Positions 33,824 to 60,845 of a stretch of 61,163 bases of DNA are shown here, piece after piece. A program made the position numbers and the translations under genes. Within the stretch, counting starts at the first letter, position 1, and each line of letters starts with the position of its first letter. A model generated the notes under the pieces. It worked only from the letters and a program-made list of their open reading frames with translations. It ran no database searches and was not told the origin of the DNA. This DNA comes from Candidatus Aminicenantes bacterium (GTDB taxonomy: Bacteria; Acidobacteriota; Aminicenantia; Aminicenantales; Saccharicenantaceae), in the NCBI GenBank assembly GCA_013178315.1, contig JABLWX010000007.1, forward strand, positions 1-61,163. Reading direction: 5' to 3'.

Positions 33824-34660
33824 TCATTTTGTTGGCTTCGCCGGCTGCGCGGCTTTAGTGGCTTCACTCTTTTTAATCAGCTCAATCGATTTTATTCTTT
33901 TCTGGGCCTGCTTGACAAACTTGCTCTTCGGATAGTCCGAGATGAGCTTGGTGAAGTAGGGCAGGCTCTCGTCGTATTTCCTGGTCTTAAAGTAGCAATC
34001 GGCTATGTAAAAATACACGGCATCCAGGCGCGGGAAGTCCGGGTAGGTGGTGATGATGGGCTGCAACCGGTTGAGGGCTGCCCGGTAGGATTTGGCCTTG
34101 TAATAATATTCGCCGATAACGAGTTCGTGGGTGGCCAGGCGGTTCTCGCAGTCCTTGATTTTTTCGGTGGCCTGGGTGGCATAGTCGCTGCTTGGATAGC
34201 TGGCTACCACCTTCTTGAATTCGTTCAGGGCCTGGACGGTCTTGGTCTTATCCCGGCCCGGTTTCAGGATGCCCTTGTAATAGGTCATGGCAATCTGGAA
34301 CTGGCAGTAGGGGACCGAGGGACTGGTTGGATAGAGGCTCATGAATTCCCGGTACTCGGCTGCAGCCAGGATCAGGTTGGCCTCGTCGCCCTTGCTGAAG
34401 TAGGTATCGGCGATGAGCAGCTTGGCCCGCTGGGCGTAGAAACTGCGGGGAAAGGAATCCATCAGCTGCCGGAGAAAGAGCAACCCCTTTTCAAAATCCT
34501 TCTTGATGTAGGTCTCTCCCAGCTTGTAGAGCGATTCGTCTGAAGCCAGGGTTTCCTGGGGCAGGGATTCCAGGGTCAGCGGCTTCTTGCGGCAGGCGGT
34601 GGCTCCAAAGACGATAAAAACCAGCGCCAGGAGCAGGCTCAGAAAAAGTTTCTTGTTCAT
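33824..34660 (-). CDS. bamD: Outer membrane assembly lipoprotein BamD
   Basis: Lipobox ATAC; TPRs; AEYREFMSLYPTS, RDKTKT, LATHELVIGEYY. Confidence 0.88.
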   Translation of the reverse strand: MNKKLFLSLLLALVFIVFGATACRKKPLTLESLPQETLASDESLYKLGETYIKKDFEKGLLFLRQLMDSFPRSFYAQRAKLLIADTYFSKGDEANLILAAAEYREFMSLYPTSPSVPYCQFQIAMTYYKGILKPGRDKTKTVQALNEFKKVVASYPSSDYATQATEKIKDCENRLATHELVIGEYYYKAKSYRAALNRLQPIITTYPDFPRLDAVYFYIADCYFKTRKYDESLPYFTKLISDYPKSKFVKQAQKRIKSIELIKKSEATKAAQPAKPTK

Positions 34661-40808: not shown

Positions 40809-40840
40809 GCCGAACCGTAAGATAACGAACGTTCACCACG

Positions 40841-40879
40841 AAGGCCCGGGCTGGTTGCCAGCCCGGGCCTTTTTTATTT
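40841..40879 (+). terminator. Intrinsic terminator
   Basis: AAGGCCCGGGCTGG-TTG-CCAGCCCGGGCCTT followed by a T-tract. Confidence 0.9.
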
Positions 40880-41518
40880 GGCGGGAGCCTTTTCGGTATG
40901 GTCATTTATAGGAAGTCTGAAATGAATCTTCCGGGCTCCTGGCCAGGCCATTTTTTCAGCAGCCCGGTTGTTCCTTCCTTGATATGGACCCGGCGAGGTT
41001 TGTGGCGATGGGCAGGGTAGATTCCGAGTTTGGCTTGGGCAGGCTGCTTCGGTTGTAATTGAGCTCAGAGCGAAGCTGTGATTTTGTGATGGGACTGGAG
41101 CCGCGCCATCACACCTTAAATATTATTTTATTATTGATATCGGCGATTAAAATGATGTTATTCTTGCCCTGCCTTCTTCTCAGGAGCTATTATCGGGGAG
41201 GGTAAATCGCCTTTACTTATCAAAAAATATATGATTATTTTTGAGGTTCAAAAATTTGACAAAGCCCCCGCTTTGTGATAATCATTAATACAATCTTCAC
41301 CGGAAGGGTGAAGGGAGTTAGAAGGTTCAAAATGAGTGGAGATGGAGAAACTTCTCTACCGGATTTTTTAAGCCCCCCATAGTATTTCCGCACTTATAAT
41401 TATTTCCTTGTTGTTCTTGTTTGAAAGGAGACGGGAACAGGGGAAATCCCAGCAAACCTGAATTAAATGGAAAAGGCCATTTAATATAAAAAAATTCATC
41501 AGAAAGGAGGAAAAGAGA

Positions 41519-42109
41519 ATGAAAAATCTGATGAAACTCGCGGTTCTCGGCCTTGTAGTGGTTTTTCTTTTTACCAGCTGCGCCAAGCAGCCCACCCAGC
41601 AGATAGATGAGGCCAAAGCTGCTATCGCTGCGGTGGAAGCGGCCAAGGGCAATATCTATGCCAAGGATGAGCTGAAGAAGCTGAACGACGACCTGCAGGC
41701 AGCCCTGGATGAGGTTAATGCCCAGTCCAAGAAGCTGTTCAAGAAGTATGGAAAGGCCAAAGAGATGCTGGCCAAGGTCAAGACCGACGCCGAAGCTGTC
41801 AAGGCTCTGATCCCGGCCAGAATTGAAGAGGCCAAGAATGCTGCCCTGACTGCCCAGAACGAGGCCAAGGCTGCTTTTGATGAGGCCAAGGCTCTCCTGG
41901 ACAAGGCCCCCAAGGGCAAGGGCACCAAGGCGGACATCGAGGCCATGAAAGCCGACCTGGCCGGCCTGGAAGCCCAGCTGACCGAAGTCCAGACCGCCAT
42001 CGACGGCGAGGACTATTTCGGCGCCAAGGACAAGGCCCTGTCCATCAAGGACAAGGCTGCGGCCATCGCCGAGCAGGTCAAAGCTGCTATTGCCAAAGTG
42101 AAGAAGTAA
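41519..42109 (+). CDS. Ala/Lys-rich alpha-helical lipoprotein (DUF4398-like) ending in Lys
   Basis: Lipobox FTSC; all-helical composition; ends AIAKVKK; strong AGGAGG RBS. Confidence 0.8.
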   Translation: MKNLMKLAVLGLVVVFLFTSCAKQPTQQIDEAKAAIAAVEAAKGNIYAKDELKKLNDDLQAALDEVNAQSKKLFKKYGKAKEMLAKVKTDAEAVKALIPARIEEAKNAALTAQNEAKAAFDEAKALLDKAPKGKGTKADIEAMKADLAGLEAQLTEVQTAIDGEDYFGAKDKALSIKDKAAAIAEQVKAAIAKVKK

Positions 42110-42153
42110 GCGTAGATTAAGTTCGAGCAATTCAAGCGGAGTCGAGTTGGTTA

Positions 42154-43269
42154 GTGAAGTGGAATGCTATACGAGCAGCGCTGATACTGTTATGCCAGCT
42201 TAGTCTGATCTTTCTTCTACAGAGTTGCCAGACCGCACCGGCTCCTCCAGAGGTAGAGCAGGCTCTTCGTCAGGAGCAGGACCTCTGGAGGGCCGGTGCT
42301 TCTATTTATGCCCCCGAAGATTACCAGAAATACCGCGGCTTGCTGGCCACGGCCCGGAAGTCCTTTGAACAGGAAGAGCTGAAAATAGGCTATTTCCGGA
42401 ATTACGATAAGGTCAAGAAGGACTTTACCGCCATCCTGGCCGAGGGAGAGAGGATCCAGAAGCTGGTGGAAGATAAGAAAGCCTCCCTGGCCGGGGAAAT
42501 AGTCGCCCGGAAAAAAGATCTCCAGTCCCGCTACGAAACCCTGAACACGCTGAGCCTGGAGCTCAGCCAGAGAACCCTGTCCCGGAAGCAGCTGGCCCAG
42601 GCCGACGTGCTTTTCAGGGAGCTCGACCGTTTCCTGGAAAAGGGAAACTATGATGAAGCCCGTTCCCGCCTCGGCCCCATCGAAAGCCTGCTCAACCAGG
42701 CAGAAAATATTCTCCGCCAGCAGCTCGAGCGCTACATGAGCCAGGAGGAAATTGCCCGCTGGAAAAAAATGGCCGAGCGGGCCCTGGAAAAATCGCGGAG
42801 CGGAAACCAGCTGGTCATCCTGGTCAGCAAGCTGGAGCGGAAACTTGTGGTTTACCGGGGCGGGGAGCCGGTTAAGAGCTACGAGGTGGGCCTGGGTTTT
42901 AACGGCCTCAGCGACAAGCTTCACGCCGGCGATAATGCCACTCCGGAAGGGGAGTACCGGGTCATCAAGAAGGTCTCTCCCAGCAAGTTCGGCAAGGCCC
43001 TGCTGATAAATTATCCCAACGAAGAGGATATCAAAAGGTTTAATGAGGCCAAGAAGAAAGGTTACCTGACCGCTTCCAGCCGAATCGGGGGCCTGATCGA
43101 AATCCACGGCGGCGGCAAGGACGGCCTGACCCAGGGCTGCGTGGCCCTGGACGACCCGGAGATGGAAGAGCTGTTCAGGCTGATCCCGGTGGGCACCCCG
43201 GTGACAATTGTGGGTACCACTGACCCAAACAACAAAATTATTGCTATACTAAGAAGAGAGCAGAAATAG
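42154..43269 (+). CDS. Lipoprotein with a YkuD-family domain of YafK/DpaA type
   Basis: Lipobox LQSC; KLHAGDNATPEGEY, LINYPNEED, EIHGGG..TQGCVAL. Confidence 0.85.
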   Translation: MKWNAIRAALILLCQLSLIFLLQSCQTAPAPPEVEQALRQEQDLWRAGASIYAPEDYQKYRGLLATARKSFEQEELKIGYFRNYDKVKKDFTAILAEGERIQKLVEDKKASLAGEIVARKKDLQSRYETLNTLSLELSQRTLSRKQLAQADVLFRELDRFLEKGNYDEARSRLGPIESLLNQAENILRQQLERYMSQEEIARWKKMAERALEKSRSGNQLVILVSKLERKLVVYRGGEPVKSYEVGLGFNGLSDKLHAGDNATPEGEYRVIKKVSPSKFGKALLINYPNEEDIKRFNEAKKKGYLTASSRIGGLIEIHGGGKDGLTQGCVALDDPEMEELFRLIPVGTPVTIVGTTDPNNKIIAILRREQK

Positions 43270-43270
43270 C

Positions 43271-43915
43271 ATGAAGTTCTGGAAGGTACTGCTGGCCCTG
43301 GTAGCCCTGGTCTACCTGTCTTCGCTGGCCATCGTGGCCCTGTCCTGGATGCATCACCTGAAACTAAGCGCCGAGTGGAAGACCGTCTGGAGCTTTGAGC
43401 TGGACCCGAAGGCCAGAGTCAAGCCGGAGGCCCAGAATGCCGCCCTGAAAAAAAAGATACAGGAGCTTCATCCCAAGGGCGTTTACATCATGGTTGACTC
43501 GGCTGAAAACCGGCTTTACCTCAAGAAGGACGGCCAGACCATAAAAGAAGCGCTGGTCTCCACCGGAAGCGGCGTCATCCTGGTTGAGCCCGGGGGCAAG
43601 AGGAGCTGGCAGTTTGACACCCCCAAGGGCGAGTTTTTCGTCAAGTCCAAGATTCAGAATCCTTACTGGGTCAAGCCGGACTGGGCCTTTATCGAAGAGA
43701 ACGAGCCAATTCCCAAGAAGATGGAAGACCGGGTGGAGGCCGGGGTGCTGGGCGACTATGCCCTGGGCTTCGGCCAGGGCTATTTCATCCACGGAACGCT
43801 TTACACCAGGCTTCTCGGGCGGAACGTCACCCACGGTTGCGTCCGCGTAGCCGACAAGGACCTAGAAGAGGTCTTCAAGGCTTCCAGGATAGGAACGCGG
43901 ATTTACATTTATTAA
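43271..43915 (+). CDS. L,D-transpeptidase (ErfK/YbiS/YcfS-type YkuD) with an N-terminal TM anchor
   Basis: VSTG, TPKGEF, PYWVKP, FIHGT, VTHGCVRV. Confidence 0.9.
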   Translation: MKFWKVLLALVALVYLSSLAIVALSWMHHLKLSAEWKTVWSFELDPKARVKPEAQNAALKKKIQELHPKGVYIMVDSAENRLYLKKDGQTIKEALVSTGSGVILVEPGGKRSWQFDTPKGEFFVKSKIQNPYWVKPDWAFIEENEPIPKKMEDRVEAGVLGDYALGFGQGYFIHGTLYTRLLGRNVTHGCVRVADKDLEEVFKASRIGTRIYIY

Positions 43916-43978
43916 GGCTGGAGAAATTATGAACAGGACTGGAAAGGAATTTGAAATAACGAGGTCCTGGAAGAGATC

Positions 43979-44948
43979 ATGAATATAGAAAAGGGAAAGG
44001 AACCGTTGCCGGGCGGAAGAAGCCGCTGGCTGAAGGTGGTTTTCTCTGCCGCGTTGGTGATGAGCTTTTCCTTTTATTTTATCAGCATCTCGGCGGCGCA
44101 GGTAAGCCGCCTGAAAAGGACGGCGGCACCCGCGGCTGTGAGTGGGAGCCGGGTCCAGAAAGCTGCTGTACCTGCCAGCCCGGGAAAGAAAAAAGTTTCT
44201 ACCAAAGGAAGCCAGACCGGGCAGAAGACAAAGCCGGCCTCGGCCCCGGAGAAACCCGCGGCGGCTTCCATCAAGGGCATTCCCGAGGCCACTCTCCAGG
44301 TACTCAAGGAAAACAGGTTCCTGGAAGAAGAGCTGAAGCTGGCCAAAACCCCGCAGTACTATTTTGTTCTTAACCTCAAGGAAAGAACCCTGGAGCTCCG
44401 GGCCCGGGGAATGGTGCTCAAGTCCTGGAAGGCCAGCGAATTGAGGTACACCGGAAAGCCGGGTGCCGCTCCAGGTGACGACCCTTACCAACAAAACGGC
44501 CCTGAACCCGCCAGAGCGAAAGGTTCTCAACCCGGCCGAGCAGCAGGCCGAGGAGGCCAGGAAAGCAGCCGAGGAAAAAGCCAGGCAGGAACAGCAGAAA
44601 AAGAAAGAGAACGGTAAGAAGCAGGACTCAACCCAATCCACCACGGCCACTCCGGCTGATACCTTCGACGTCGAGGCCCTGGAGATTACCGACATGCCCG
44701 GTTCCTACGAGCTCAATTTTGACGACGGGCTGAGGATATTTGTCCGGTCAAAATCGGGCTTCAGCGAAAAGTTCCGTCAAACCCGGGAGACCCTGCTCTG
44801 GTACACCTGGTACCCGGTCAAGCACTTCCTCAACAGGAAGAGCGAGCTGCGCCCGCAGCTCATCCTCTATTTTGACAACATGCGCGATGCCCAGGGCATA
44901 TACTGGGCCTTCATCGACGGCCTCAAGGGCATCATCTGGTTCCCGTAA
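43979..44948 (+). pseudogene. Non-catalytic YkuD-like exported protein split by a +1 frameshift (extra G at 44459-44463)
   Basis: ORF 43979-44617 and ORF 44463-44948 join as ..YTGKPVPLQV.. if one G of CCGGG is removed; a sequencing error cannot be excluded. Confidence 0.7.
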
Positions 44949-45020: not shown

Positions 45021-45050
45021 CTTGACAAATTAATACTCAACTTTTATATT
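45021..45050 (+). promoter_or_regulatory. dnaK sigma-70 promoter with an overlapping HAIR-like HspR operator
   Basis: TTGACA(45022)-17nt-TATATT; CTTGACA-N7-ACTCAAC at 45021-45041 versus consensus CTTGAGT-N7-ACTCAAG. Confidence 0.75.
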
Positions 45051-49256: not shown

Positions 49257-50102
49257 ATGAAATACCAGGATTACTTAGAGTCTCGAAACATCAAGCTCTA
49301 CCTGGAGGAGATCTCCAAGATTCCGCCCATCACCGAGGAGGAAGAAAAGGAGCTCGGCGAGCGCCTCAAGAAGGGCGACCCGGAGGCCCTGCGCCGGCTG
49401 ATCGAGGGCAACCTGCGGTTTGTCGTTTCCTACGTCAAGAGGTACCAGGGCATGGGCCTGACCTTGCTCGACCTGATCAACGAGGGCAACCTGGGTCTGG
49501 TGGAGGCGGCCCAGCGCTTCGACCCCGACCGGAATGTCAAGTTTATCTCCTATGCCGTCTGGTGGATCAGGCAGGCCATCGTCCACGCCCTGTCCCAGGC
49601 CTCCCATTCCTTCAACCTGCCCCAGAAAATTTCGGACAGGATTTCGCGGATGAACCGGGAAAAGGAGGTTCTCCGCAAGGAGCTCGGCCGGGAGCCGACC
49701 CGCGAGGAAGTGGCCGAACGCCTTAAAATTACCCCGGAGGAGGTGGCCGACCTGGAGCTCATCCAGGAAAAGGGCCTGTCGCTCTCCGATAAGATCAGCG
49801 AGGACGAGGACCTGGAGGTCGAGGACCGGGTGTCCGACGAGCTCGAGCCTTCCGTCGAGTACCAGCTCATCAAGAACTCCATAGAGCAGCAAATCCGGGA
49901 AATCCTCAACGAGCTGGATGAACGCGAAGCCCTTGTGCTAAAATTACGCTTCGGAATAGATAGCGACGAGCCGATGACCCTCCAGGAAATCGGCGACCGC
50001 CTCGGCCTGACCCGGGAGCGGATCAGGCAGATTGAACAGCGGGCTATGCGCAAGCTGGCCCATTCGCAGAAACTGAAACAGTTGAGAGGTTACCTGAATT
50101 GA
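49257..50102 (+). CDS. Short RpoD/RpoS-like sigma-70 factor lacking region 1.1
   Basis: LYLEEISKIP (1.2), NLRFVVS, DLINEGNLGL, KFISYAVWWIRQAI, TLQEIG..TRERIRQIE. Confidence 0.93.
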   Translation: MKYQDYLESRNIKLYLEEISKIPPITEEEEKELGERLKKGDPEALRRLIEGNLRFVVSYVKRYQGMGLTLLDLINEGNLGLVEAAQRFDPDRNVKFISYAVWWIRQAIVHALSQASHSFNLPQKISDRISRMNREKEVLRKELGREPTREEVAERLKITPEEVADLELIQEKGLSLSDKISEDEDLEVEDRVSDELEPSVEYQLIKNSIEQQIREILNELDEREALVLKLRFGIDSDEPMTLQEIGDRLGLTRERIRQIEQRAMRKLAHSQKLKQLRGYLN

Positions 50103-50845
50103 CCGAAGAAAAAGTTTGCCCGGTTTGCCAGGGCAGCGGCTGGGTGGTGAAGCAGACCGAGAAGGGACCGGTGGCCCGGCGCTGCAAGTGCTTCAGCGAG
50201 CAGCAGGCCATGCTCCTGCTGCGGCAGGCCCGGATCCCGAAGCGCTACGAGACCTGCACCCTGGACAACTACGAAACCCACCATCCGACCCAGGGCGATG
50301 CCCTGAAGATTTCCAAGAAGTTCGTCAAAAATTACCCGGCCCAGGAAGTGGGCCTGCTCTACATCGGTCCGTGCGGGGTGGGGAAGACTCACCTGGCGGT
50401 GGCGGTCATCAGGGAGCTCATCCTGAAGAAAGGGGCCTACTGCATTTTTTACGACTTCCGGGAGCTAATCCGCGACATCCAGAACAGTTACACGCCGGAC
50501 TCCGAGGTGAGCGAGACCGACATCCTGGCCCCGGTTTTTAACTGCGAGGTGCTGGTGCTGGACGAGCTGGGGGCCAAGCGGCCGACGGCCTGGGTGGAAG
50601 AAACGATTTTTTACATCATAAATTACCGTTACAACCAGAAGCGCGTGACCATTTTCACTTCAAATTACCTCGACATTGAGGAAGAGCCCGACCGGCGGGA
50701 GACCTACTACAAGAAGGGCGATGAAACCCTGGTGGATAGGATTGGGGTGAGGCTCAGAAGCCGGCTATATGAAATGTGCAAGGTGGTAAATATAGCCGGC
50801 GAGGATTACCGCAAGGTGGCCCGCCAGGCCAGCTACCGCTTCTGA
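50099..50845 (+). CDS. DnaC/IstB-like AAA+ ATPase with an N-terminal Zn motif
   Basis: CPVCQGSG..RCKC, GPCGVGKTHLA, LDELG, TSN, RLRSRLYEMC. Confidence 0.85.
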   Translation: MTEEKVCPVCQGSGWVVKQTEKGPVARRCKCFSEQQAMLLLRQARIPKRYETCTLDNYETHHPTQGDALKISKKFVKNYPAQEVGLLYIGPCGVGKTHLAVAVIRELILKKGAYCIFYDFRELIRDIQNSYTPDSEVSETDILAPVFNCEVLVLDELGAKRPTAWVEETIFYIINYRYNQKRVTIFTSNYLDIEEEPDRRETYYKKGDETLVDRIGVRLRSRLYEMCKVVNIAGEDYRKVARQASYRF

Positions 50846-51026
50846 GAGCCGGCGGCTGAATTTCCCTCTTGGCACCTGTGCTACCCCTGGCCAGGCCAAA
50901 CCCATACATAAGCTCTAAATTAGGTTCAGCGTTGTCTAATCCCGGACCATTTCCTTATGAAATAATCTGGTCTATGATAATAGTTTTACAGGTTGGCATT
51001 TATTGAACATATCGCCTCGATTGGTA

Positions 51027-51055
51027 TTGCCAAAAGGCAGAATTTTTGCTATAAA
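51027..51055 (+). promoter_or_regulatory. Sigma-70 promoter of tRNA-Asn
   Basis: TTGCCA-17nt-TATAAA. Confidence 0.65.
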
Positions 51056-51068
51056 TCATTAAGCCTGC

Positions 51069-51144
51069 TCCTCGGTAGCTCAATCGGCAGAGCGGGTGGC
51101 TGTTAACCACTAGGTTGCAGGTTCGAGTCCTGCCCGAGGAGCCA
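51069..51144 (+). tRNA. tRNA-Asn (GTT)
   Basis: Acceptor stem TCCTCGG/CCGAGGA, anticodon loop CTGTTAA, T loop GGTTCGAGTCC, encoded CCA. Confidence 0.96.
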
Positions 51145-51600
51145 TTTTTATTTTTAAACCTCAATATAGCATTACCTCATATCTTTTTTTTAATTGGGCT
51201 CTAGTCTTTTAAATTATTAAAAATCGCGAGAAAATTTAAAGTCTGCTCGTCGTCTTAATTAAGCAAACAAATATTTCCAGTATATGTTCTCGCTGTTTTT
51301 ATATTATTTGACAGCCATACTTAATATCTGTAAATTATTAAAAATTGGTAGTAATGAAACTGTTCCATAATAAGGGCAAAATTAGATTTTTCTTTCTGGC
51401 GTGTTCACTTCAAAATTTAGAAGTTTTGATCATTTATGCAATAAAATATGGACCTCTATCCATTTTATTTAATTAAATGAAAAGCATCAGTTTTATTAAA
51501 AATTTTAATAATTTGGAATGGCTTAACTAAATGATGATATGAACGGAGCTAATTATCATTATAAAGTTTATATTCCTTTTATATCGAAACGGAGGAGATT

Positions 51601-54600
51601 ATGGCCGAGTCAAATCCCTTAACAAAGTTTCAATCCCTGTTACAAGAGCTTTTTCAATTTGATTGTTCTGATTTAGATTTCGGCATATATAGGATAATGA
51701 ATTATAAGCGGGGAGTTATCCAGCGATTCATTGAAAAAGATCTTCCTAATGCTGTTGCTGAAGAATTAAGGCAGGGGGTGCTAGCTGAACAAGCACAGGC
51801 ACAAGAAGCTCTGGTCTCGGCCCGCGATATATTGTTGAAAACGCTGGGTGATAATGCACTGGATGCTGATGGCAATCTTGGTGAACAATTCAAAAATACA
51901 CCTGCAGGCAAAGCCTATCTAAAAGCCCAGGCTAAAGCCAAAGCTTCACGTTCTACGGAGGCCTTGGAAGCTACCATCTATAATCACCTCTATACCTTCT
52001 TCAGCCGCTACTGGCAGGATGGGGACTTTATTTCAAGGCGTCGATATTCTAAGAAGGAGCGCTATGCCATTCCATATAATGGCGAAGAAGTAATGCTTTA
52101 CTGGGCCAACCACGATCAGTACTACATCAAAACAGGCGAATATTTTACCGATTATACATACCAAGCATCCAATGGCGTTACTGTTCATTTCAAACTTAAG
52201 CAAGTAGATTTAGAGCAGAACAACGTAAAAGCGGAGAAGCGTTTCTTTCTGCCTTTGCTTGATGGTATTTCTTGGGATGAAACCTCCCGCACGCTAATAG
52301 TTCCTTTTGAGTTTCGGCCGCTTACTGAGCAGGAGATAATTATATACGGACAGAAAAATCAGCAAGAGACCATCATCTCCAAAGCAGTAATAGATATTCC
52401 GAAGCGCATCAAGGCTATCGAGGTCTTAGCTGCATTGACTGCCGAGCGACAGAAGAGAGAAGATGGCACACCTGTCTCATTACTTGAGCACCATCTAAGA
52501 CAGTACACTCGTCGTAATACAAGCGACTTTTTCATTCATAAGGATCTTATGGGTTTCCTGTCCAGAGAGCTGGATTTTTATCTTAAGAATGAAGTGCTGA
52601 ATCTGGATGAAATTGAAAATGCCGGTGAGTCCTTGAGCGAGGGATGGTTCCAGTTAATGCGTATCATTAAGCGCATAGGACTTCGGATCATTGAATTTTT
52701 GGCTCAAATCGAGGAATTTCAGAAAATGCTCTGGGAAAAGAAGAAATTTGTTACCGAAACCTTTTATATGATTACTATAGGCAACATCCCTGAGGTTTTT
52801 TATCCCGAAATAGTTGCTTGCGATGCCCAGTGGGAGGAATGGAAGTTGTTCTTGAGCCTCAACGAGCTACCTCCCGATATACTTGCTGGAGATTTCCGCA
52901 CTCCGGAAGGGCGTCTTACATTTTTAAAAAACCATTCTACCTTGCCCTTGGACACTCGCCATTTTTCAAAAGATTTCACTGATCGTCTGCTGGCTTCTTT
53001 CGACAATATTGATGATTTGGTTGATGGCTTGCTGGTGCATTCTGAAAACTGGCAGGCGCTTAATCTCCTCAAGGAAAAGTACCGTGAGCAGATAAAGTGC
53101 ATATACATTGATCCGCCATATAATACAGGTAGTGATGAATTTCTTTATCGTGATAACTACAAACATTCTAGTTGGTTGGCGATGATGGAGAATCGGCTTG
53201 AAGCATCTAAATTTCTATTTACAAAAGATATTATTATGTTCATTAGCATCGATGATAACGAACAAAGACGATTAAAAATGCTGTTAGAACACTGTATGGG
53301 AGAACAAAATCTTATTGCCACGATTCCTGTCGTGACTAATCTCAAAGGTAATCAAGACGAGTTTGGTTTTGCAGGAACTCATGAATATGCAGAGGTCTCT
53401 ATTTTTAGCAGAGCAGATGCAAGGTTTGGAAATTTTCCCCTTCAAGATGAAGAAGAACTAGAAGATTGGGAAGAAGATGAGCACGGTTATTATAAGAGAG
53501 GGGCCAACTTGAAAGCTACAGGTATCAACGCACCGCGCTCGAAACGTCCAAATTTATTTTATCCGATTTACATCACGCAGAATGGTGAGATATCAATATC
53601 AAGGACTTCGCCCGCTGATATAGAAATACTTCCAATCACTGGTGGCGAAGAGATGAGCTGGCGATGGAGCAAAGATAAACTTGAGAGAGAAAAGCACAAC
53701 GTTATCGTTGTAAGAGAAGGGAATACAATCTCACTATATAAGAAACAACGGCCTTCAATTGGGGACATGCCAAGTAGCAAACCAAAGTCTATTTTCTATA
53801 AACCTGAATATAGCAGTGGCAACGGAACCGCTCAGATACGTGCCCTTTTTGGAAGCAAAGTGTATTCTTACCCAAAGCCAGTAGAACTTATAAAGGATTA
53901 TCTTTTGGCAGGAAATGCCAGAAGCTGGACGCTCGACTTCTTCGCAGGTTCTGGCACTACTGGGCATGCCGTTATTGGCCTAAACCGTGAAGATGGTGGT
54001 CAGCGGAAGTTTATTCTAGTGGAAATGGCCCGTTATTTTGATACTGTGCTCCTTCCAAGGATTAAAAAAGTGACGTTCACTCCAGAATGGAAGGATGGCA
54101 AGCCTAAGCGTATGGCCACCCCGGAAGAAGCAGCACGCAGCCCCCGCGTAGTAAAGGTAATAAGACTGGAATCATATGAGGACTCACTAAATAATCTGAC
54201 TTTCGATGAAGAGGGGGGACAGAAGGCTTTGGCAATGTTTATGGATGAGTATCTGCTTAATTACATGCTTCGTTGGGAAACCCGAAAGAGTGAGACAATG
54301 CTCGATATTGAGAAATTGCAATCTCCACTTTCGTACAGACTTCGTATCTACCACGATGGAGAAATCAAAGAACGGCCAGTGGACCTTCCTGAAACATTTG
54401 CATATCTTATAGGAATGGATGTAAAAACACGCAGAGTCTATGAAAATTATGGAAAGCATTATATGGTCTACCGTGGGACATTACGGAATGGAAAAACAAT
54501 TGTGGTTATCTGGAGAGAAGTAAAGGATTGGTCTGAAGAAGATTACAGACGAGAACTTGAGTTCATATCTAACCAGAAGATTACCGACGGGGCCGAAGAA

Positions 54601-54690
54601 ATCTATGTAAATGGTGATTCAATCATCCCCGGCGCCCAGTCGCTGGACCCTATCTTCAAACACCGCATGTTTATGGGAGTGGAGGGGTGA
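51601..54690 (+). CDS. Type III R-M N6-adenine methyltransferase (Mod), large form
   Basis: IYIDPPYNTG (about aa 501) precedes LDFFAGSGTTG (about aa 780), the beta-class order; begins DLDFGIYRIMN. Confidence 0.9.
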   Translation: MAESNPLTKFQSLLQELFQFDCSDLDFGIYRIMNYKRGVIQRFIEKDLPNAVAEELRQGVLAEQAQAQEALVSARDILLKTLGDNALDADGNLGEQFKNTPAGKAYLKAQAKAKASRSTEALEATIYNHLYTFFSRYWQDGDFISRRRYSKKERYAIPYNGEEVMLYWANHDQYYIKTGEYFTDYTYQASNGVTVHFKLKQVDLEQNNVKAEKRFFLPLLDGISWDETSRTLIVPFEFRPLTEQEIIIYGQKNQQETIISKAVIDIPKRIKAIEVLAALTAERQKREDGTPVSLLEHHLRQYTRRNTSDFFIHKDLMGFLSRELDFYLKNEVLNLDEIENAGESLSEGWFQLMRIIKRIGLRIIEFLAQIEEFQKMLWEKKKFVTETFYMITIGNIPEVFYPEIVACDAQWEEWKLFLSLNELPPDILAGDFRTPEGRLTFLKNHSTLPLDTRHFSKDFTDRLLASFDNIDDLVDGLLVHSENWQALNLLKEKYREQIKCIYIDPPYNTGSDEFLYRDNYKHSSWLAMMENRLEASKFLFTKDIIMFISIDDNEQRRLKMLLEHCMGEQNLIATIPVVTNLKGNQDEFGFAGTHEYAEVSIFSRADARFGNFPLQDEEELEDWEEDEHGYYKRGANLKATGINAPRSKRPNLFYPIYITQNGEISISRTSPADIEILPITGGEEMSWRWSKDKLEREKHNVIVVREGNTISLYKKQRPSIGDMPSSKPKSIFYKPEYSSGNGTAQIRALFGSKVYSYPKPVELIKDYLLAGNARSWTLDFFAGSGTTGHAVIGLNREDGGQRKFILVEMARYFDTVLLPRIKKVTFTPEWKDGKPKRMATPEEAARSPRVVKVIRLESYEDSLNNLTFDEEGGQKALAMFMDEYLLNYMLRWETRKSETMLDIEKLQSPLSYRLRIYHDGEIKERPVDLPETFAYLIGMDVKTRRVYENYGKHYMVYRGTLRNGKTIVVIWREVKDWSEEDYRRELEFISNQKITDGAEEIYVNGDSIIPGAQSLDPIFKHRMFMGVEG

Positions 54691-54691
54691 G

Positions 54692-57600
54692 ATGCCACGC
54701 CAAGGTCGAACGCTATCCAATCAAAGAAACAGATCAAGTGGCATTCAGCAATATGTCAAACTTGAACATCGATTGGTATTGCTTGCCTGGATAAATAGCC
54801 TTCTTGGCTATGAAACGAATAGAGAGCTTTTGGAAGACTGTAAGTCAGCTGCTGAAGGCTTTGGAGCAGATGGAAATAGCTTTATATATCACCATTTAAT
54901 TGCCCGCGGAGACAAGCTTAAGATAAGCAAAGATAATCTTGCCCGGTATGATGAAAATATTCGTGTTCATTTGGAGAAAATAAACCGCAGTCGGACCGAA
55001 AAGATTACCCTGCGCTATTTCCAGTATCTGGCGGCGCTCTACACAGAAATCATGCTCGACCGCCTGTTCAGATCCAAGGCCCAATTGATAGCTGATTTAA
55101 ATGCTTTTGTAGATGACCGTAACGCGCACCGTCTTCCTTCTGAACCACAAGATGATCCCTTTGTTGAAGATGATCTGATCAAACTGGCCTTCTGGATGGC
55201 TACTGGCAGCGGCAAAACGATTCTTTTTCATCTGAACTATTATCAGTTTCTATACTACAATTATGATCCCTTGGATAACATCATCTTAATCACTCCAAAC
55301 GAGGGCATGACGACTCAACACCTTGCAGAATTGGCCTCTTCTGGAATTCCGGGGCGACGGTTTGAGCTGAACACAAGCAGCTTATGGAGTGGTGGTCAGA
55401 ATGTCATTCAAGTCATTGATATACACAAGTTAGTAGAAGAAAAGAGGGGTGGCGGAGTAAGTGTTCCAGTGGAAGCATTCGAAGGACGGAATCTCATCTT
55501 TGTAGACGAAGGCCACAAGGGCACCGGAGGAGAGGTCTGGCGTAAGTATCGCGATGCGCTGGGGGCGACCGGTTTTACTTTCGAATACAGTGCCACTTTC
55601 GGGCAGGCCCTTACGGCTGCGCGTAATGATCCTCTTACAGCGGAATATGGCAAAGCAATCGTCTTTGATTACTCATATAAATATTTTTATCTTGATGGTT
55701 TTGGCAAGGATTTCCGCATAATTAATATGCCGGAGCAAGTGGATGAGCAAAAAACAGATGTCTTGCTTCTAGGGAATCTACTGTCTTTCTATGAACAGAC
55801 GCGGTTTTATGAGGAACAAAAAAATAATCTTGCCGCGTACAATCTGGAGAAACCGCTCTGGATTTTCGTGGGCAGTACGGTTAATGCAGTTTTTAAGGAG
55901 AACAGACGTCCGTGCAGTGATGTGCTGACAGTGGCGCGTTTTTTTCATCGAGTGCTAAGCGACCAGAACTGGGTAATAGAGACTATTAAAAATATTTTAG
56001 ATGGGAATTCTGGCCTGAAAATTTCTGATCAAGATATTTTTGCCGGCCATTTCCTGTTCTTGCGCGAATTAAATCTTGCTCCAGGACAAATTTTTGAAGA
56101 TATTCTATGGCGCATTTTCCATGTTTCCTCAGGTTCTGGGTTGCACCTGGGGGAGATAAAAAATAGTTCTGGAGAAATTGGATTAAAAGCTGCTAATGCC
56201 GAAAAGTACTTCGGTCTAATTTATATTGGAGATTCTTCGGAATTCAAAAAATTAGTTGAAGAGAATGCACAGGAAATAGTTATTGAACAGGATGCCATTA
56301 TTTCTTCTCTATTCGACCATATAAATGAATCGAGTTCTGACATTAATGTTTTAATAGGAGCAAAAAAATTCATTGAAGGATGGAACTCATGGAGGGTCGC
56401 CAATATGGGATTAATCAATATTGGGCGCCAGGAGGGATCGCAAATAATACAACTTTTTGGCAGAGGGGTGAGGCTTAAAGGAAAAGGCATGAGCCTTAAG
56501 CGTAGCGCTGCCTTATCTGGAAGTCATCCTAGACATATACGAATACTTGAGACACTGAATGTGTTTGGAGTAAGAGCGAAATATATGGGAGAGTTTCGTA
56601 ATCATTTAGAAAAAGAAGGTGTGGAAACGGCTGAACCACTAGAGTTATTGCTTCCCATTAGGATAAACAATGAATTTCTTGATAAGGGATTGGTTATTCC
56701 GCGGCCAAAAATTGGCTTGGACTTTGTATCGGACCAAATGTTCATATTAGAGCCAGATAATACAATTAACATAGTTGTTGATATGTCGACAAAGATTCAA
56801 GTAGTTGAAAGCGATCATTTAGAAGAAAATGGAATTACAAAATTACAGGAAGCAAGAACAGGTATCGAGCAAAAAATACCTGATGAATGCCTTGATCTTG
56901 TAGATTGGGAAAAGGTTTATTGTGATTTGATAGAATTTAAGAACCGTAAAAAGCTAGCTAATTTGGTTGTAAGACCGGAAAGGTTAAGGAAAATTATAAA
57001 GGACCTGAACTATAAGCTCATTGCGGATGAATCAGTCGTAAAACCACAGAAATTTGTGTGTGTGAAACGTCTTCAAGAAGCGGTAACAAACATTCTCCGA
57101 AAATATGCAGAAGCCTTTTATCGTATTAGGAGAGAAAGGTGGGAAGAGAAAGAGGCCCTGGTTTATTACCCGTTGGATACGGCAGATCCCAATTTAAGCT
57201 TAAACAGAGACCGAGTAGGTGAATCGCATGACGGAGCTTATATCTTAAGAGTTCAACGATCAAATGAATCAACAGAATCATTAATAAATGAAGTACAGAG
57301 GCTACTTAAGAATCTTGACCAATTATATACGCAGGATAGCCAGAATGGAGAGAATGTGGGCCGAATATATTTTGATAGGCATCTTTATTTACCTCTATTA
57401 GTTAAACAATCCGATATAATTCAATCCATTCCTCCCGGCTTAAATCTGAGTGAGTATCAGTTTGTACGAGATTTGAAGGAATATTGGGAAAATGAAAAAG
57501 AAAGGCTGTTGAAAGACAAGGATATTTATTTATTACGTAACTTGAGCCGAGGCAGAGGGATTGGCTTTTTTGAAGAGCGAGGTTTCTACCCTGATTTCAT

Positions 57601-57925
57601 ATTATGGATATTAGATAAGAAAGCTGGCCATCAGCGAATCGTATTTGCAGAACCTCATGGCATGATCCATGCCGGGCCATATGATAGAGATGAAAAAGCA
57701 CGGCTGCATGAAAAGTTGGAAGATCTTTCGGTGGTGATAGGCCGGAGAACGGGTAGAAATGGCGTTAGTCTGGATTCATTTATCATATCCGCAACGCCTT
57801 TTGAAAGTCTCAAAAAAATATATGATGATGGCAAATGGGATAGAAACAAGTTCGCTGAAAGACATATTTTATTTCAAGATGCAGGATCTGATTACGTGCC
57901 AAGAATATTAGGCATAAAGAAATAG
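54692..57925 (+). CDS. Type III R-M restriction subunit (Res), SF2 helicase plus nuclease
   Basis: MATGSGKT, VDEGH, YSATF, FIEGWN, IIQLFGRGVRL, C-terminal FYPDFILW..FAEPHG; ATG 1 nt after the mod stop. Confidence 0.88.
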   Translation: MPRQGRTLSNQRNRSSGIQQYVKLEHRLVLLAWINSLLGYETNRELLEDCKSAAEGFGADGNSFIYHHLIARGDKLKISKDNLARYDENIRVHLEKINRSRTEKITLRYFQYLAALYTEIMLDRLFRSKAQLIADLNAFVDDRNAHRLPSEPQDDPFVEDDLIKLAFWMATGSGKTILFHLNYYQFLYYNYDPLDNIILITPNEGMTTQHLAELASSGIPGRRFELNTSSLWSGGQNVIQVIDIHKLVEEKRGGGVSVPVEAFEGRNLIFVDEGHKGTGGEVWRKYRDALGATGFTFEYSATFGQALTAARNDPLTAEYGKAIVFDYSYKYFYLDGFGKDFRIINMPEQVDEQKTDVLLLGNLLSFYEQTRFYEEQKNNLAAYNLEKPLWIFVGSTVNAVFKENRRPCSDVLTVARFFHRVLSDQNWVIETIKNILDGNSGLKISDQDIFAGHFLFLRELNLAPGQIFEDILWRIFHVSSGSGLHLGEIKNSSGEIGLKAANAEKYFGLIYIGDSSEFKKLVEENAQEIVIEQDAIISSLFDHINESSSDINVLIGAKKFIEGWNSWRVANMGLINIGRQEGSQIIQLFGRGVRLKGKGMSLKRSAALSGSHPRHIRILETLNVFGVRAKYMGEFRNHLEKEGVETAEPLELLLPIRINNEFLDKGLVIPRPKIGLDFVSDQMFILEPDNTINIVVDMSTKIQVVESDHLEENGITKLQEARTGIEQKIPDECLDLVDWEKVYCDLIEFKNRKKLANLVVRPERLRKIIKDLNYKLIADESVVKPQKFVCVKRLQEAVTNILRKYAEAFYRIRRERWEEKEALVYYPLDTADPNLSLNRDRVGESHDGAYILRVQRSNESTESLINEVQRLLKNLDQLYTQDSQNGENVGRIYFDRHLYLPLLVKQSDIIQSIPPGLNLSEYQFVRDLKEYWENEKERLLKDKDIYLLRNLSRGRGIGFFEERGFYPDFILWILDKKAGHQRIVFAEPHGMIHAGPYDRDEKARLHEKLEDLSVVIGRRTGRNGVSLDSFIISATPFESLKKIYDDGKWDRNKFAERHILFQDAGSDYVPRILGIKK

Positions 57926-58067
57926 AACTTGGACTTTTTTTATTTATGTACAGAGCCTGTGTTAATTAAATTTTTTAAATTATTTTATTATGTGTTATTT
58001 TCGTTAATATTAGCGATATGGGTTCTATCCTAATAAACACAATAAACTTATTTAAGGGTGATTTATT

Positions 58068-60845
58068 ATGGAAGAGGGGATTGATAAAAACCAATTAATA
58101 AGACACATTATTGAAACCCCAAATCCCTTATCAGAAGAACAAAAGAGCGCCGTTTTATCGAAAAGCAGATATCTAAGAATCGTTGCTGGTGCTGGCACTG
58201 GAAAAACAGAGACAATGACACGTAGGGTAGTTTATTTAATACTATGTGAAAATGCGTTGCCTGGATCAATAGTAGTTTTTACTTTTACTGAAAAGGCAGC
58301 TCAAAGTATAAAAAGTAGAATCTATGAAAGGGTGAGACAATTAGGCGGCGAGGAAAAAAGTGCAGGGCTTGGCGATATGTTCGTTGGGACTATTCACAGC
58401 TTCTGTTTTCATCTATTAGAAGATAAATTCGGGTATGGTAATTTCAGTGCGATTGATAAAAATAAAGAGATGGCTTTCCTAATGCGTGAAGGGTGGAGCC
58501 TTGGATTGGGCTCAAAAGGCAATTATGGAACTAATTGCGAAAGATTTTTAAGGTCTGTTGACGTTGTTTATAATGAACTAATTGATATAAATAAGCTGAG
58601 GGTCCAAGCAGAGTCATTCAGCAAACAGTTTGAAAAATATGAAGCCACTCTAAATCACCATAAATTGATTAATTTTGGACAAATGATCAGCAGAGCGGTC
58701 CATGAGATCGAAAGTAAACCTGATTCGATATCTTATATAAAGCATCTTATAGTTGATGAATACCAAGATATAAATAGAGCCCAAGATAGATTGATAAAAT
58801 TAATTGGCAAGAAGGCAAGCGTATTTATTGTGGGTGACCCTAGGCAGTGTATCTACCAATGGCGAGGATCAGATGAAAAATGCTTTGATGAATTCACATT
58901 AGAATATAGAGAATGCGAGCAAATAACCATACGAGAAAATCGAAGGAGTGTTCCCGAAATTGTAGATGTGGCTAACACTACTGCTGCCTTCTTCGCGCAT
59001 AAATATTATGAACCGTTATTGCCGATTAGGAAAGAGAACGGAAAAGTTGTCTTGTTAAAAGCAGCATGTGCCGAATCAGAAGCCGCCTGGGTAATAAATC
59101 AAATAAAGTTATTAATAAAAATGAATGAAGACCTTAGATTTCGTGACTTTGCAATTTTATTGAGAAGTGTTAAGACATCTGGAAGGATGTTCATCGAAAG
59201 ATGTAAGGAAGAAAGCATTCCATTTATTGTTGGGGGCAATGTTGGCTTGTTTCAAAGAGATGAAGCACAAGCCGTTGGAAGGTTAATCGCTTGGCTTGAT
59301 GAAGATGGGTTTTGGTATGGAGATCAGTTTCAGAAAAAAGAGATTATCAAGGGAGAAAATCTATTAATATCAGGATTAGAAAAATGGAAGATTGCAGTAG
59401 GTGATGAATTAATAGCCCATGATATTGAAGATGAACTTAGAGAATGGAAGACTGATGTTTTTAATGATAGGTATCCTAATTTTTCAGATCTTTATCAAGA
59501 ACTTCTTAGAATATTGGGATTCTTGAAATTAAATCCTGAGAATAAAATGCATGCGGCGCTTATGGCCAACTTAGGTAGGTTTAATACTTTATTGACAGAT
59601 TATGAGACATCGATTCGCTTGGGTGGACAGAAATTAGATTGGAAGGCCAACTTAAAAGGGCTTTGCTGGTTCATGAACTCATATGCGATAGGTTCCTATG
59701 AAGAAAATTATGGTGATGATATAAGAGGCGTTGATGCTGTCCAAATCATGACAGTTCACCAGGCCAAGGGATTGGAATGGCCCGTTGTTTTTGTGCCGTG
59801 TTTAACTGATAAAAGATTTCCCAGTAGCAATACTGGAAAGCAACAAGAATGGTTGTTACCAAGGAATTCAGGGCTTTTTCCGGTTGAAAGATATGAAGGA
59901 AATATCGAGGACGAAAAAAGGCTATTTTATGTGGCAATTACAAGAGCCAGAGATTTACTATGCTTAAGTTACTTCAAAAAAATCGAGATGGCCAGTAAGC
60001 ATAATCAGAGCCATAGTATATTTTTGAGTCCAATAGATAAGACCCTTAACTATGATTCCATATTAGACGATTCAAAAAATATACCCAAAGTAAATATAAT
60101 GCCTGCGAGTGAAAAAGAAGAAATTCAAACGTTTTCTGCCACAGAAATAATCTATTATAGAAGATGCCCATTTATGTATAGGCTCCGTGAAATATTTGGA
60201 TTTCAGCCCGGTCTTGATATTGCATTGGGATTTGGGCGGAGTCTTCATTATTGCCTGAGCTGTGCCATTGATTTAATCAAAACTGAGAAAGATCTTGAAA
60301 AGATGGTAAATAATCTCATAGAAGAAAAATTCCATTTGCCCTTCGCTGGCGGCAACTATCTTGAGATTATGAAAAATAAAGCTAAAAAATTGTTGTATGA
60401 ATTTATTAAACAAAATATAAATGATCTAATGAATATAAAGGAAGTAGAAGCAAGGCTTGAATTTCCAATAGAGAAAGCAACGGTTGCCGGGAAAATAGAT
60501 GCAATAATTAAGGTAGAAGGTGAACGGGAATTGCTAGAAATAAGAGATTATAAGACATCTGATAAAGTCGAGTCATATGAGGATTCAAGCTTACAGCTAC
60601 AGATTTATGCCTTGGGGCTGAGAAAAATGAAAAATAGAGTGGCGGAAGCTTCTATTGCTTATCTTGATAGTTCATCCGATAAAGGCGAAAAGATTAAGGG
60701 TGTGCCGATTAATGATGAAATATTAAATCGCGCTGAAAGAACAGTTAAATCGTGCATCGATGCGATTAGGAATGGTCAATATAATGCGAGGTGCGGTGCC
60801 CATTGTAATAATTGCGATTATAGAACGATATGTCGTTATTCTTAG
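58068..60845 (+). CDS. UvrD/PcrA-like SF1 helicase fused to a PD-(D/E)XK nuclease with an Fe-S cysteine staple
   Basis: AGAGTGKT, DEYQD, VGDPRQCIYQWRG, TVHQAKGLEW, EKRLFYVAITRA; RRCPF, GKIDAI..RDYKTS, QLQIYA, CNNCDYRTIC. Confidence 0.88.
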   Translation: MEEGIDKNQLIRHIIETPNPLSEEQKSAVLSKSRYLRIVAGAGTGKTETMTRRVVYLILCENALPGSIVVFTFTEKAAQSIKSRIYERVRQLGGEEKSAGLGDMFVGTIHSFCFHLLEDKFGYGNFSAIDKNKEMAFLMREGWSLGLGSKGNYGTNCERFLRSVDVVYNELIDINKLRVQAESFSKQFEKYEATLNHHKLINFGQMISRAVHEIESKPDSISYIKHLIVDEYQDINRAQDRLIKLIGKKASVFIVGDPRQCIYQWRGSDEKCFDEFTLEYRECEQITIRENRRSVPEIVDVANTTAAFFAHKYYEPLLPIRKENGKVVLLKAACAESEAAWVINQIKLLIKMNEDLRFRDFAILLRSVKTSGRMFIERCKEESIPFIVGGNVGLFQRDEAQAVGRLIAWLDEDGFWYGDQFQKKEIIKGENLLISGLEKWKIAVGDELIAHDIEDELREWKTDVFNDRYPNFSDLYQELLRILGFLKLNPENKMHAALMANLGRFNTLLTDYETSIRLGGQKLDWKANLKGLCWFMNSYAIGSYEENYGDDIRGVDAVQIMTVHQAKGLEWPVVFVPCLTDKRFPSSNTGKQQEWLLPRNSGLFPVERYEGNIEDEKRLFYVAITRARDLLCLSYFKKIEMASKHNQSHSIFLSPIDKTLNYDSILDDSKNIPKVNIMPASEKEEIQTFSATEIIYYRRCPFMYRLREIFGFQPGLDIALGFGRSLHYCLSCAIDLIKTEKDLEKMVNNLIEEKFHLPFAGGNYLEIMKNKAKKLLYEFIKQNINDLMNIKEVEARLEFPIEKATVAGKIDAIIKVEGERELLEIRDYKTSDKVESYEDSSLQLQIYALGLRKMKNRVAEASIAYLDSSSDKGEKIKGVPINDEILNRAERTVKSCIDAIRNGQYNARCGAHCNNCDYRTICRYS

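Follow-up and report, generated by a model that had tools for sequence, protein, structure and literature searches.

The 61,163-nucleotide (nt) stretch of Candidatus Saccharicenans DNA (Aminicenantia, Acidobacteriota) analysed here, hereafter the window, carries between positions 41519 and 44948 four genes, a, b, c and d, all on the + strand, which belong to a cassette whose gene order is kept across several phyla. Its products are a lipoprotein modelled as a helical rod with an invariant internal lysine (a), a stalk-borne YkuD protein of the hydrolase type (b), a canonical L,D-transpeptidase as judged by its motifs (c), and an apparently dead YkuD-like protein (d). We tentatively propose, giving the idea somewhat less than even weight, that a is a covalent tether joined to peptidoglycan through Lys134 or a lysine of its C-terminal tail, with c as the ligase, b as the releasing enzyme and d as a modulator. 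The four genes are:

41519–42109, + strand: gene a, a 196-residue helical stalk lipoprotein with borderline DUF4398 similarity (open reading frame, 766 homologues, AlphaFold2 model, metatranscriptome contigs).
42154–43269, + strand: gene b, a 371-residue lipoprotein with a GTG start and the lipobox LLQS followed by Cys (Pfam YkuD, E = 7.5e-19).
43271–43915, + strand: gene c, a 214-residue, transmembrane-anchored, predicted canonical L,D-transpeptidase (Pfam YkuD, E = 1.4e-25).
43979–44948, + strand: gene d, a membrane-anchored, probably catalytically dead YkuD-like protein, frameshifted here (open reading frames, hhalign, no conserved His or Cys).

A first-pass annotation of this DNA had treated the genes as one unit, and the comparison of gene order across phyla bears this out. 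Every Aminicenantia locus with enough flanking sequence has the order a-b-c-d, flanked there too by the genes for malic enzyme and dnaK; because these neighbours are also conserved in Aminicenantia, synteny inside this group alone proves little. In a metagenome-assembled genome (MAG) labelled Deltaproteobacteria, a, b, c and d lie amid unrelated genes, while a Nitrospirota-labelled contig has a and b beside a histidine kinase, again with unrelated flanking genes, and a complete 5.4-Mb chromosome of the Bacteroidota type carries a(198)-b(376)-c(249)-d(253), residues in brackets, among carbohydrate-utilisation genes. We also analysed a distant subfamily of 80 metagenome loci, in which a is 35–40% identical to the window protein and the named members are Bacteroidales, Prolixibacteraceae and Mangrovibacterium. 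Here, where the flank is long enough, b follows a in 57 of 58 loci (in the remaining one b is split), c comes next in 47 of 47, and an iterated profile places d after c in 39 distant loci (36 of the 80, plus L087, L121 and L145); neither malic enzyme nor dnaK was found near the loci of this subfamily. Altogether, upwards of 130 loci of several phyla, with differing flanking genes, show this gene order, an arrangement far beyond chance. Since the order is kept in distant loci with unrelated flanks, a-b-c-d behaves as a cassette, transferred and maintained as a whole. In most lineages b, c and d have N-terminal transmembrane anchors, and in loci of the Bacteroidota type b is held by a transmembrane helix instead of a lipobox; a is a lipoprotein in all. 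Many of the Aminicenantia-type cassette records (L007–L086) are titled 'uncultured Eubacteriales', 'Clostridiales', 'Terriglobales' or 'Candidatus Desulfaltia', and such records with discordant titles are probably mislabelled or mis-binned MAGs.

The features of gene a on which the argument turns are:

41505–41511, + strand: Shine-Dalgarno sequence AAGGAGG of gene a (sequence).
41579–41581, + strand: lipobox Cys21 (FTS followed by Cys), the lipid attachment site of a, kept in 84 of 84 aligned family members.
41906–41923, + strand: tip loop A-P-K-G-K-G of a, residues 130–135, with Lys134 at 41918–41920 (alignment).
42095–42106, + strand: basic C-terminal tail K-V-K-K of a, residues 193–196, with K193 present in 88%.

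The open reading frame, the composition and the AlphaFold2 model all agree with the initial description of a as a helical, Ala/Lys-rich lipoprotein with an FTSC lipobox, a strong ribosome-binding site and a KVKK end. AGGAGG lies 7 nt 5' of the ATG, the signal peptide MKNLMKLAVLGLVVVFLFTS precedes the lipidated Cys, and the mature protein of 176 residues consists of 24% Ala and 18% Lys, with KVKK at its C-terminus. A Pfam scan of a gave no LPP match and merely weak coiled-coil noise. PF14346 (DUF4398) is not among the 25 best Pfam matches of the window protein; for a homologue 87% identical to it the score over residues 28–107 is 28.2 bits, the cut-off being 27.9, and several homologues bear the NCBI name DUF4398. 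Among the four cassette genes a is the most conserved: in locus L004 its identity is 77%, next to 80% for dnaK, 78% for malic enzyme, 45% for b and 33% for d.

We then aligned 84 members of the family, which comprises 947 representatives, with identities to the window protein down to about 30%. Exactly two columns of this alignment are invariant, Cys21 and Lys134. Around the lysine, A130, P131 and G133 are each kept in at least 97% of the sequences, giving a loop consensus of AP-x-G-K-G/E, and a P-x-G-K-[GED] motif occurs in 386 of 410 homologues, a set comprising the distinct full-length lipoprotein homologues of a. The far C-terminus is conserved in a different way. The first-pass annotation had a joined to the wall by a C-terminal lysine, as in Lpp, and had itself named conservation of that residue as the test; the test went against it. 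Of the 120 closest homologues, 98 end in Arg, 21 in Lys and 1 in Tyr; of 114 full-length representatives of 50%-identity clusters, 45 end in Lys, 31 in Arg and 38 in another residue; and of the 410, 186 (45%) end in Arg, 163 (40%) in Lys and 61 (15%) in another residue. At least two Lys or Arg lie within the final eight residues in 400 of the 410, and a Lys lies within the final five in 378 (92%). What is conserved is therefore a basic tail and not a terminal Lys. Even where present, a C-terminal Lys is weak evidence, because it is shared by more than 20% of the periplasmic proteins and lipoproteins of E. coli (PMC12274547). Lys134 is, from its conservation, a better candidate than the terminal Lys for an acceptor lysine or a contact site, and the idea of a tether holds solely in a changed form, with attachment via Lys134 or a non-terminal lysine of the tail.

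An AlphaFold2 model of a, computed from the 84-sequence alignment, is all-helical (mean predicted local distance difference test score, pLDDT, 94.7; predicted template modelling score 0.81), with helices at residues 26–41, 49–70, 78–129, 137–162 and 166–195. The 52-residue central helix is common to two three-helix bundles, which is the layout of tandem spectrin repeats, and the model thus predicts a single chain of five helices that forms a rod with two three-helix repeats and a length of about 8 nm (52 residues x 1.5 Å). Helix order and lengths, rather than coordinates, suggest that the lipidated N-terminus lies at one end of this rod, and the Lys134 loop together with the C-terminal tail at the other. 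A fold search of the model against the PDB returned no match at E <= 0.001; the nearest shapes, none of them significant, included spectrin repeats and the N-terminal stalk of Borrelia BB0323 (Foldseek probability 0.95–0.99, template modelling score 0.42–0.44). An internal sequence repeat in a was considered and rejected, since hhalign of the two halves gave a probability of 20%.

Gene b divides into the following parts:

42226–42228, + strand: lipid-bearing Cys25 of b (lipobox).
about 42229–42804, + strand: a-like stalk of b (alignment with a, helix pattern).
about 42805–43215, + strand: YkuD domain of b, of the hydrolase type (Pfam, family motif).
43105–43107 and 43138–43140, + strand: catalytic His318 and Cys329 of b (family motif).

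As the first-pass annotation had it, b is a lipoprotein with a YkuD domain, and the motifs GDNATPEGEY, YPNEED and IHGGGKDGLTQGCVAL are in place beside the Pfam match. Conserved in its family are GD.ATPEG.Y, YPN..D and IEIHGGG...T.GC[VI]A, and the catalytic Cys is not followed by Arg. When compared with the PDB, the catalytic-domain profile of b matched 8ikr best (E = 4.3e-10), then Bd1075 (7o21, 7.3e-10), Pgp2 (about 6e-8) and Csd6 (1e-7), and ordinary transpeptidases at 1e-4 or worse. Entry 8ikr, deposited under the name 'YkuD domain-containing protein', is the crystal structure of DpaA, as its sequence matches that of the DpaA described in PMC10653827. In DpaA, Lys83 marks the hydrolase branch and Ala145 occupies the position of the transpeptidase Arg, and where the L,D-carboxypeptidases have a Trp lining the D-Ala pocket DpaA has Met133 (PMC10653827). 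The b protein has the DpaA-like Ala after the catalytic Cys and the equivalent of Lys83 (..DK...GD..), and does not have the carboxypeptidase Trp. These residues and the profile matches suggest that b belongs to the hydrolase branch of the YkuD family, with the Lpp-detaching amidase DpaA/YafK as its closest solved relative, though not as its orthologue.

Over its first 100 residues b can be aligned with a (E = 2.6e-6), and the two, over 42154–42804 in b and 41579–42109 in a, are paralogues with the same five-helix pattern. In a single-sequence model of b the stalk is predicted with confidence (pLDDT 80–96; the YkuD part is below 50), with helices at 32–46, 54–75, 84–136, 142–163 and 166–194; a linker helix then leads to the catalytic domain. 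The tip loop of b reads LSQRT in place of AP-x-GKG; since the stalk nevertheless shares the helix pattern of a, the GKG loop appears to be dispensable for the fold. By alignment and model, b would in effect be an a protein with an enzyme replacing the tail. This leaves two possible origins: a derives from the b stalk, or b from an a protein that was fused with a YkuD domain.

The catalytic residues of the third gene are:

43790–43792 and 43838–43840, + strand: His174 and Cys190 of c (catalytic motif).

Gene c matches PF03734 with 91 bits against a cut-off of 23.4, and its TPKGEF, PYWVKPDW, IHGT and THGCVR motifs and N-terminal transmembrane helix agree with its earlier description as a membrane-anchored YkuD protein. 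The motif IHGT..Y.R.LG..VTHGC[VI]R is invariant in 16 diverse members of the family, and the best PDB match is a Klebsiella L,D-transpeptidase (4lzh, E = 1.2e-7). By these motifs c is a canonical L,D-transpeptidase. The more specific label 'ErfK-like', which the first-pass annotation had also attached to it, fits the motif set, but the matches to the NCBIfam models PRK10260, LdtE and PRK10190 are weak (4e-9 to 5e-7, far under their cut-offs). The sequence of c would suit attachment of a protein and cross-linking of stems equally well, and we know of no sequence rule that separates attaching from cross-linking L,D-transpeptidases.

Gene d had likewise been called a non-catalytic YkuD-like gene. 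In the window its frame is broken into 43979–44617 and 44463–44948 by one extra G in the run at 44459–44461 (a +1 frameshift). It is intact, at 322 residues, in a relative with an a protein of 97% identity, and a contig from one public sequencing run lacks the extra base, so the break is an assembly error or a strain variant. In line with the non-catalytic part of the description, no conserved His or Cys was found in the d family, and for the YkuD resemblance, with no Pfam match to d, the sole support is a profile-profile alignment with c (hhalign probability 86%, E = 5e-6, 156 columns). This alignment spans the whole YkuD domain, and d has an N-terminal membrane anchor as well; d may be a degenerate, catalytically dead copy of c.

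A minority of a homologues lack the G-K-G tip motif, and these depart from the pattern described above. All five that could be placed (L172, L174, L177, L176 and L180) are without the cassette; three have a HAMP histidine kinase directly downstream and the other two have the start of the same kinase, with a sigma-54 response regulator following the kinase in L172 and L177. In our sample, loop motif and cassette occur together, which is suggestive. This fold may here have given rise to an envelope-sensing pair, a loop-less stalk lipoprotein with its kinase.

Evidence of expression comes from metatranscriptome assemblies of wastewater, groundwater, hot-spring and anaerobic-digester origin. Contigs cover a from about 41469–41486 to about 42210–42232, so that a is transcribed in nature; their depth over a is similar to that of malic-enzyme and dnaK fragments and weaker over b, and a is probably more abundant than the enzymes, contig depth being a poor measure of expression. 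Genes c and d are mostly uncovered, with a weak signal over d in one hot-spring run. Contigs from several independent runs end at 42208–42232, within the signal-peptide coding part of b, where there is no recognisable terminator; nor was a convincing + strand terminator found in the gap between a and b. This position may be a point of attenuation or processing between the two genes.

In the mechanism we envisage, the N-terminal lipid of a would sit in a membrane, and the far end of the rod would present Lys134, in its glycine-flanked AP-x-G-K-G loop, together with the Lys/Arg-rich tail. The inner-membrane-anchored c would form an acyl-enzyme with a tetrapeptide stem of peptidoglycan and pass the stem, through its meso-diaminopimelic acid (mDAP), to the epsilon-amine of either Lys134 or a lysine in the tail. 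The stalk of b, being of matching length, would hold a DpaA-like hydrolase at the height of the a tip, from where it could reverse the link, and d, as a dead copy of c, might serve as adaptor or regulator. What the analysis shows is the gene content, the conservation of the cassette, the invariant Lys, the rod model and the enzyme subtypes; the covalent bond, the lysine used, the membrane that holds a and the parts played by b and d are inferred. For attachment through a lysine other than the last, two outer-membrane proteins provide precedent: Coxiella burnetii LimB is linked to mDAP via its internal Lys21, and Legionella Lpg1810 via the penultimate Lys of its Lys-Thr end, with no attaching enzyme named for either in the review describing them (PMC12729407). 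If a were held by the inner membrane, the module would be nearer to OutB of Dickeya than to Lpp. A broader version of the proposal, in which Bacteroidota, Acidobacteriota and the lineages labelled Nitrospirota or Deltaproteobacteria share a widespread covalent membrane-peptidoglycan tether unrelated to Lpp, a spectrin-like stalk lipoprotein bound at its invariant internal tip lysine, with a dedicated set of membrane-anchored enzymes from the same operon (c as ligase, b as stalk-borne release enzyme and the pseudoenzyme d as adaptor) that would set and tune the spacing of the periplasm, seems to us rather unlikely, if far from negligible.

Several other explanations have to be weighed against a covalent tether. 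That the genes are adjacent by descent alone, with no joint function, would suit the conserved malic-enzyme and dnaK flanks within Aminicenantia, but the order is kept in other phyla where all flanking genes are different and the stop codon of b and the start codon of c are 1 nt apart, and we judge it extremely improbable. Attachment of a by its C-terminal Lys in the manner of Lpp, the exact version first put forward, agrees with the KVKK end of the window protein, the 88% conservation of K193 and the frequency of Lys in the last five residues (92% of homologues, where about 44% would be expected at 11% Lys content); Lpg1810, moreover, is linked by a penultimate Lys, and OutB tolerates changes to its Lpp box. 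Yet 98 of the 120 closest homologues end in Arg, 60% of the 410 end in a residue other than Lys, and some tails have no Lys in their final eight residues, which leaves this version improbable. General editing of peptidoglycan, with c making 3-3 cross-links, b acting as a stalk-held L,D-carboxypeptidase or endopeptidase, and a a passive spacer or a structural paralogue of the b stalk, is favoured by the place of the L,D-carboxypeptidases Bd1075, Pgp2 and Csd6 just behind DpaA among the solved relatives of b (7e-10 to 1e-7), by the Gly-specific carboxypeptidase side activity shown by DpaA itself (PMC10653827), and by a c sequence indistinguishable from those of cross-linking enzymes, its NCBIfam matches of the LdtA/B/E type being weak. 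This account, however, has to contend with the invariant Glu that b carries instead of the D-Ala-pocket Trp of Csd6, Pgp2 and Bd1075, and it leaves unexplained the constant presence of a, its top conservation and the invariant tip lysine that tracks the cassette; we regard it as quite unlikely.

The remaining alternative, a serious rival to which we accord a real but minor chance, is a non-covalent regulator or scaffold comparable with LpoA and LpoB, the lipoprotein activators of PBP1A and PBP1B. On this account a would be a lipid-anchored ruler whose tip loop docks b, c and d, perhaps while the rod pairs with the b stalk, and which switches on or positions cross-linking and trimming. The transmembrane anchors of b, c and d in most lineages, beside an a that is always a lipoprotein, fit this arrangement; the paralogy and common helix pattern of a and the b stalk would suit side-by-side pairing, and high conservation over the whole surface of a fits multiple protein contacts. 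The account gains further support from the loop-less homologues upstream of a HAMP histidine kinase and sigma-54 response regulator, and a kinase also stands beside the cassette in the Nitrospirota locus. Against it, an invariant, glycine-flanked lysine looks like an acceptor amine, whereas a docking loop would usually accept Arg; the dead paralogue d is already available as a regulator; and the hydrolase-type b would be left without an obvious role.

The proposal of a covalent tether for its part faces a number of difficulties. Conservation in a does not extend to the terminal Lys by which Lpp-type linkage is defined, and we know of no L,D-transpeptidase that needs a dedicated protein substrate, so that c could simply make 3-3 cross-links. 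Lpp is extremely abundant, and the contig depth of a, although a poor measure, is not far above that of malic enzyme and shows no such excess. The kinase-adjacent relatives suggest that the stalk can serve as a sensor or partner protein and not a tether, and the co-occurrence of loop and cassette comes from few clades and not from independent events. For b, the difficulties lie in its substrate. An invariant Glu stands two positions ahead of its catalytic His (IEIHG, 43099–43107), at the position of the carboxypeptidase Trp and of Met133 in DpaA; with Lys and Ala present and the Trp replaced by Glu, b appears DpaA-like in having no D-Ala pocket, and the Glu may mark a third substrate specificity in the hydrolase-type YkuD branch, so that b could be a different kind of hydrolase. 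The 'YafK-like' label of the first-pass annotation accordingly survives as to the branch and the best solved relative, but not as to the family: NF040599, the NCBIfam model for DpaA/YafK/LdtF, scores b at 29.6 bits (E = 3.4e-7) against a cut-off of 365, while still being its best NCBIfam match. Because b falls so far under this equivalog cut-off, its role as a tether hydrolase can be put forward only as a suggestion.

Among known systems the module appears, from sequence comparison, to be most like Lpp, LdtA/B/C (attachment) and DpaA/YafK (detachment) of E. coli in its working, yet not a member of that system. Both have a lipid-anchored helical protein of about 8 nm with a basic far end, and a canonical YkuD transpeptidase and a DpaA-like YkuD hydrolase in the same genome; the suggestion that a is an analogue of Lpp stands to the extent that it is a predicted lipid-anchored rod of roughly Lpp length outside the Lpp-bearing group, and fails on the terminal Lys. 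There is no relation in sequence or fold, a being a single-chain rod of 176 residues and Lpp a trimeric coiled coil of 58. The enzymes here are membrane-anchored and encoded in one operon with a dead paralogue; E. coli lpp does adjoin ldtE, although in convergent orientation, and LdtE does not carry out the attachment. The distribution differs too, the cassette being found in Acidobacteriota, Bacteroidota and MAGs labelled Nitrospirota or Deltaproteobacteria and not in Gammaproteobacteria. Neither LimB nor Lpg1810 is related to a in sequence or size, and for neither has a dedicated operon or a hydrolase on a stalk been described.

Like a, Borrelia BB0323 and Leptospira LipL71 are lipoproteins with a helical stalk; theirs, of the DUF4398 or spectrin-like kind, presents a peptidoglycan-binding module (LipL71 is annotated as DUF4398 plus LysM). 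Their LysM domains bind the wall non-covalently, whereas a lacks such a domain, offers just the lysine loop and the basic tail, and has YkuD enzymes as its partners; such LysM fusions fit a general role of these stalks in presenting something to the wall. With b, the carboxypeptidases Csd6, Pgp2 and Bd1075 share GD..TPEG.Y, the YPN motif and the absence of Arg after the catalytic Cys, but they have an NTF2-like C-terminal domain and the Trp where b has an a-like stalk and the Glu. LpoA and LpoB resemble a as lipoproteins that possibly reach across the periplasm to inner-membrane peptidoglycan enzymes; they are not homologous to it, and the partners of a are YkuD enzymes from the same operon. 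The first-pass annotation had supposed the arrangement to be undescribed, and in keeping with this no description of the cassette was found in the titles and abstract openings of the papers listed for transpeptidase-mediated tethering; a search of the literature on DUF4398 found no functional study.

A good understanding of how the outer membrane is covalently tethered to the wall exists only for Lpp, which is restricted to certain Gammaproteobacteria, and for a few examples from Alpha- and Gammaproteobacteria that involve beta-barrels or lipoproteins; far less is established about the means by which Bacteroidota, Acidobacteriota and many other two-membrane phyla set their wall-to-membrane distance. 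The cassette is a concrete and widely distributed tether candidate for these groups, testable at Lys134, at one ligase Cys and at one hydrolase Cys. If a were instead a regulator and not a substrate, the cassette would be, to our knowledge, the first known dedicated set of L,D-transpeptidase accessory proteins, with a stalk-mounted hydrolase and a dead paralogue.

The edges of the transcription unit and its sequence context are marked by two further features:

40844–40880, + strand: intrinsic terminator past the malic-enzyme gene, the upstream edge of the cassette transcription unit (perfect GC-rich hairpin GGCCCGGGCTGG..CCAGCCCGGGCC, then a T-run).
45022–45050, + strand: promoter-like site of dnaK, TTGACA-17-TATATT, the downstream edge of the cassette (11 of 12 consensus positions).

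The intergenic stretch ahead of gene a (40809–41518) is unusually long, at 710 nt, and includes a promoter-like site at 41256–41285; an Rfam scan of this region gave no credible match. As to the host, the names carried by near-identical proteins place the contig in Candidatus Saccharicenans. The window encodes a BamD/YfiO outer-membrane lipoprotein on the - strand (33824–34660), with the lipobox ATA followed by Cys and then Arg-Lys-Lys, and because the genome encodes BamD the organism has two membranes, with an outer membrane of the BAM type. The residues after the lipidated Cys are Ala-Lys in a and Arg-Lys in BamD. Elsewhere in the window, 50099–60845 forms a low-GC (guanine plus cytosine) island, at 37–46% compared with about 57% in the remainder, whose genes encode an IstB-like ATPase, a 1029-residue N6/N4 DNA methylase, a 1104-residue ResIII helicase and a 925-residue UvrD helicase with a PD-(D/E)XK nuclease; probably this is a restriction or defence island gained by horizontal transfer.

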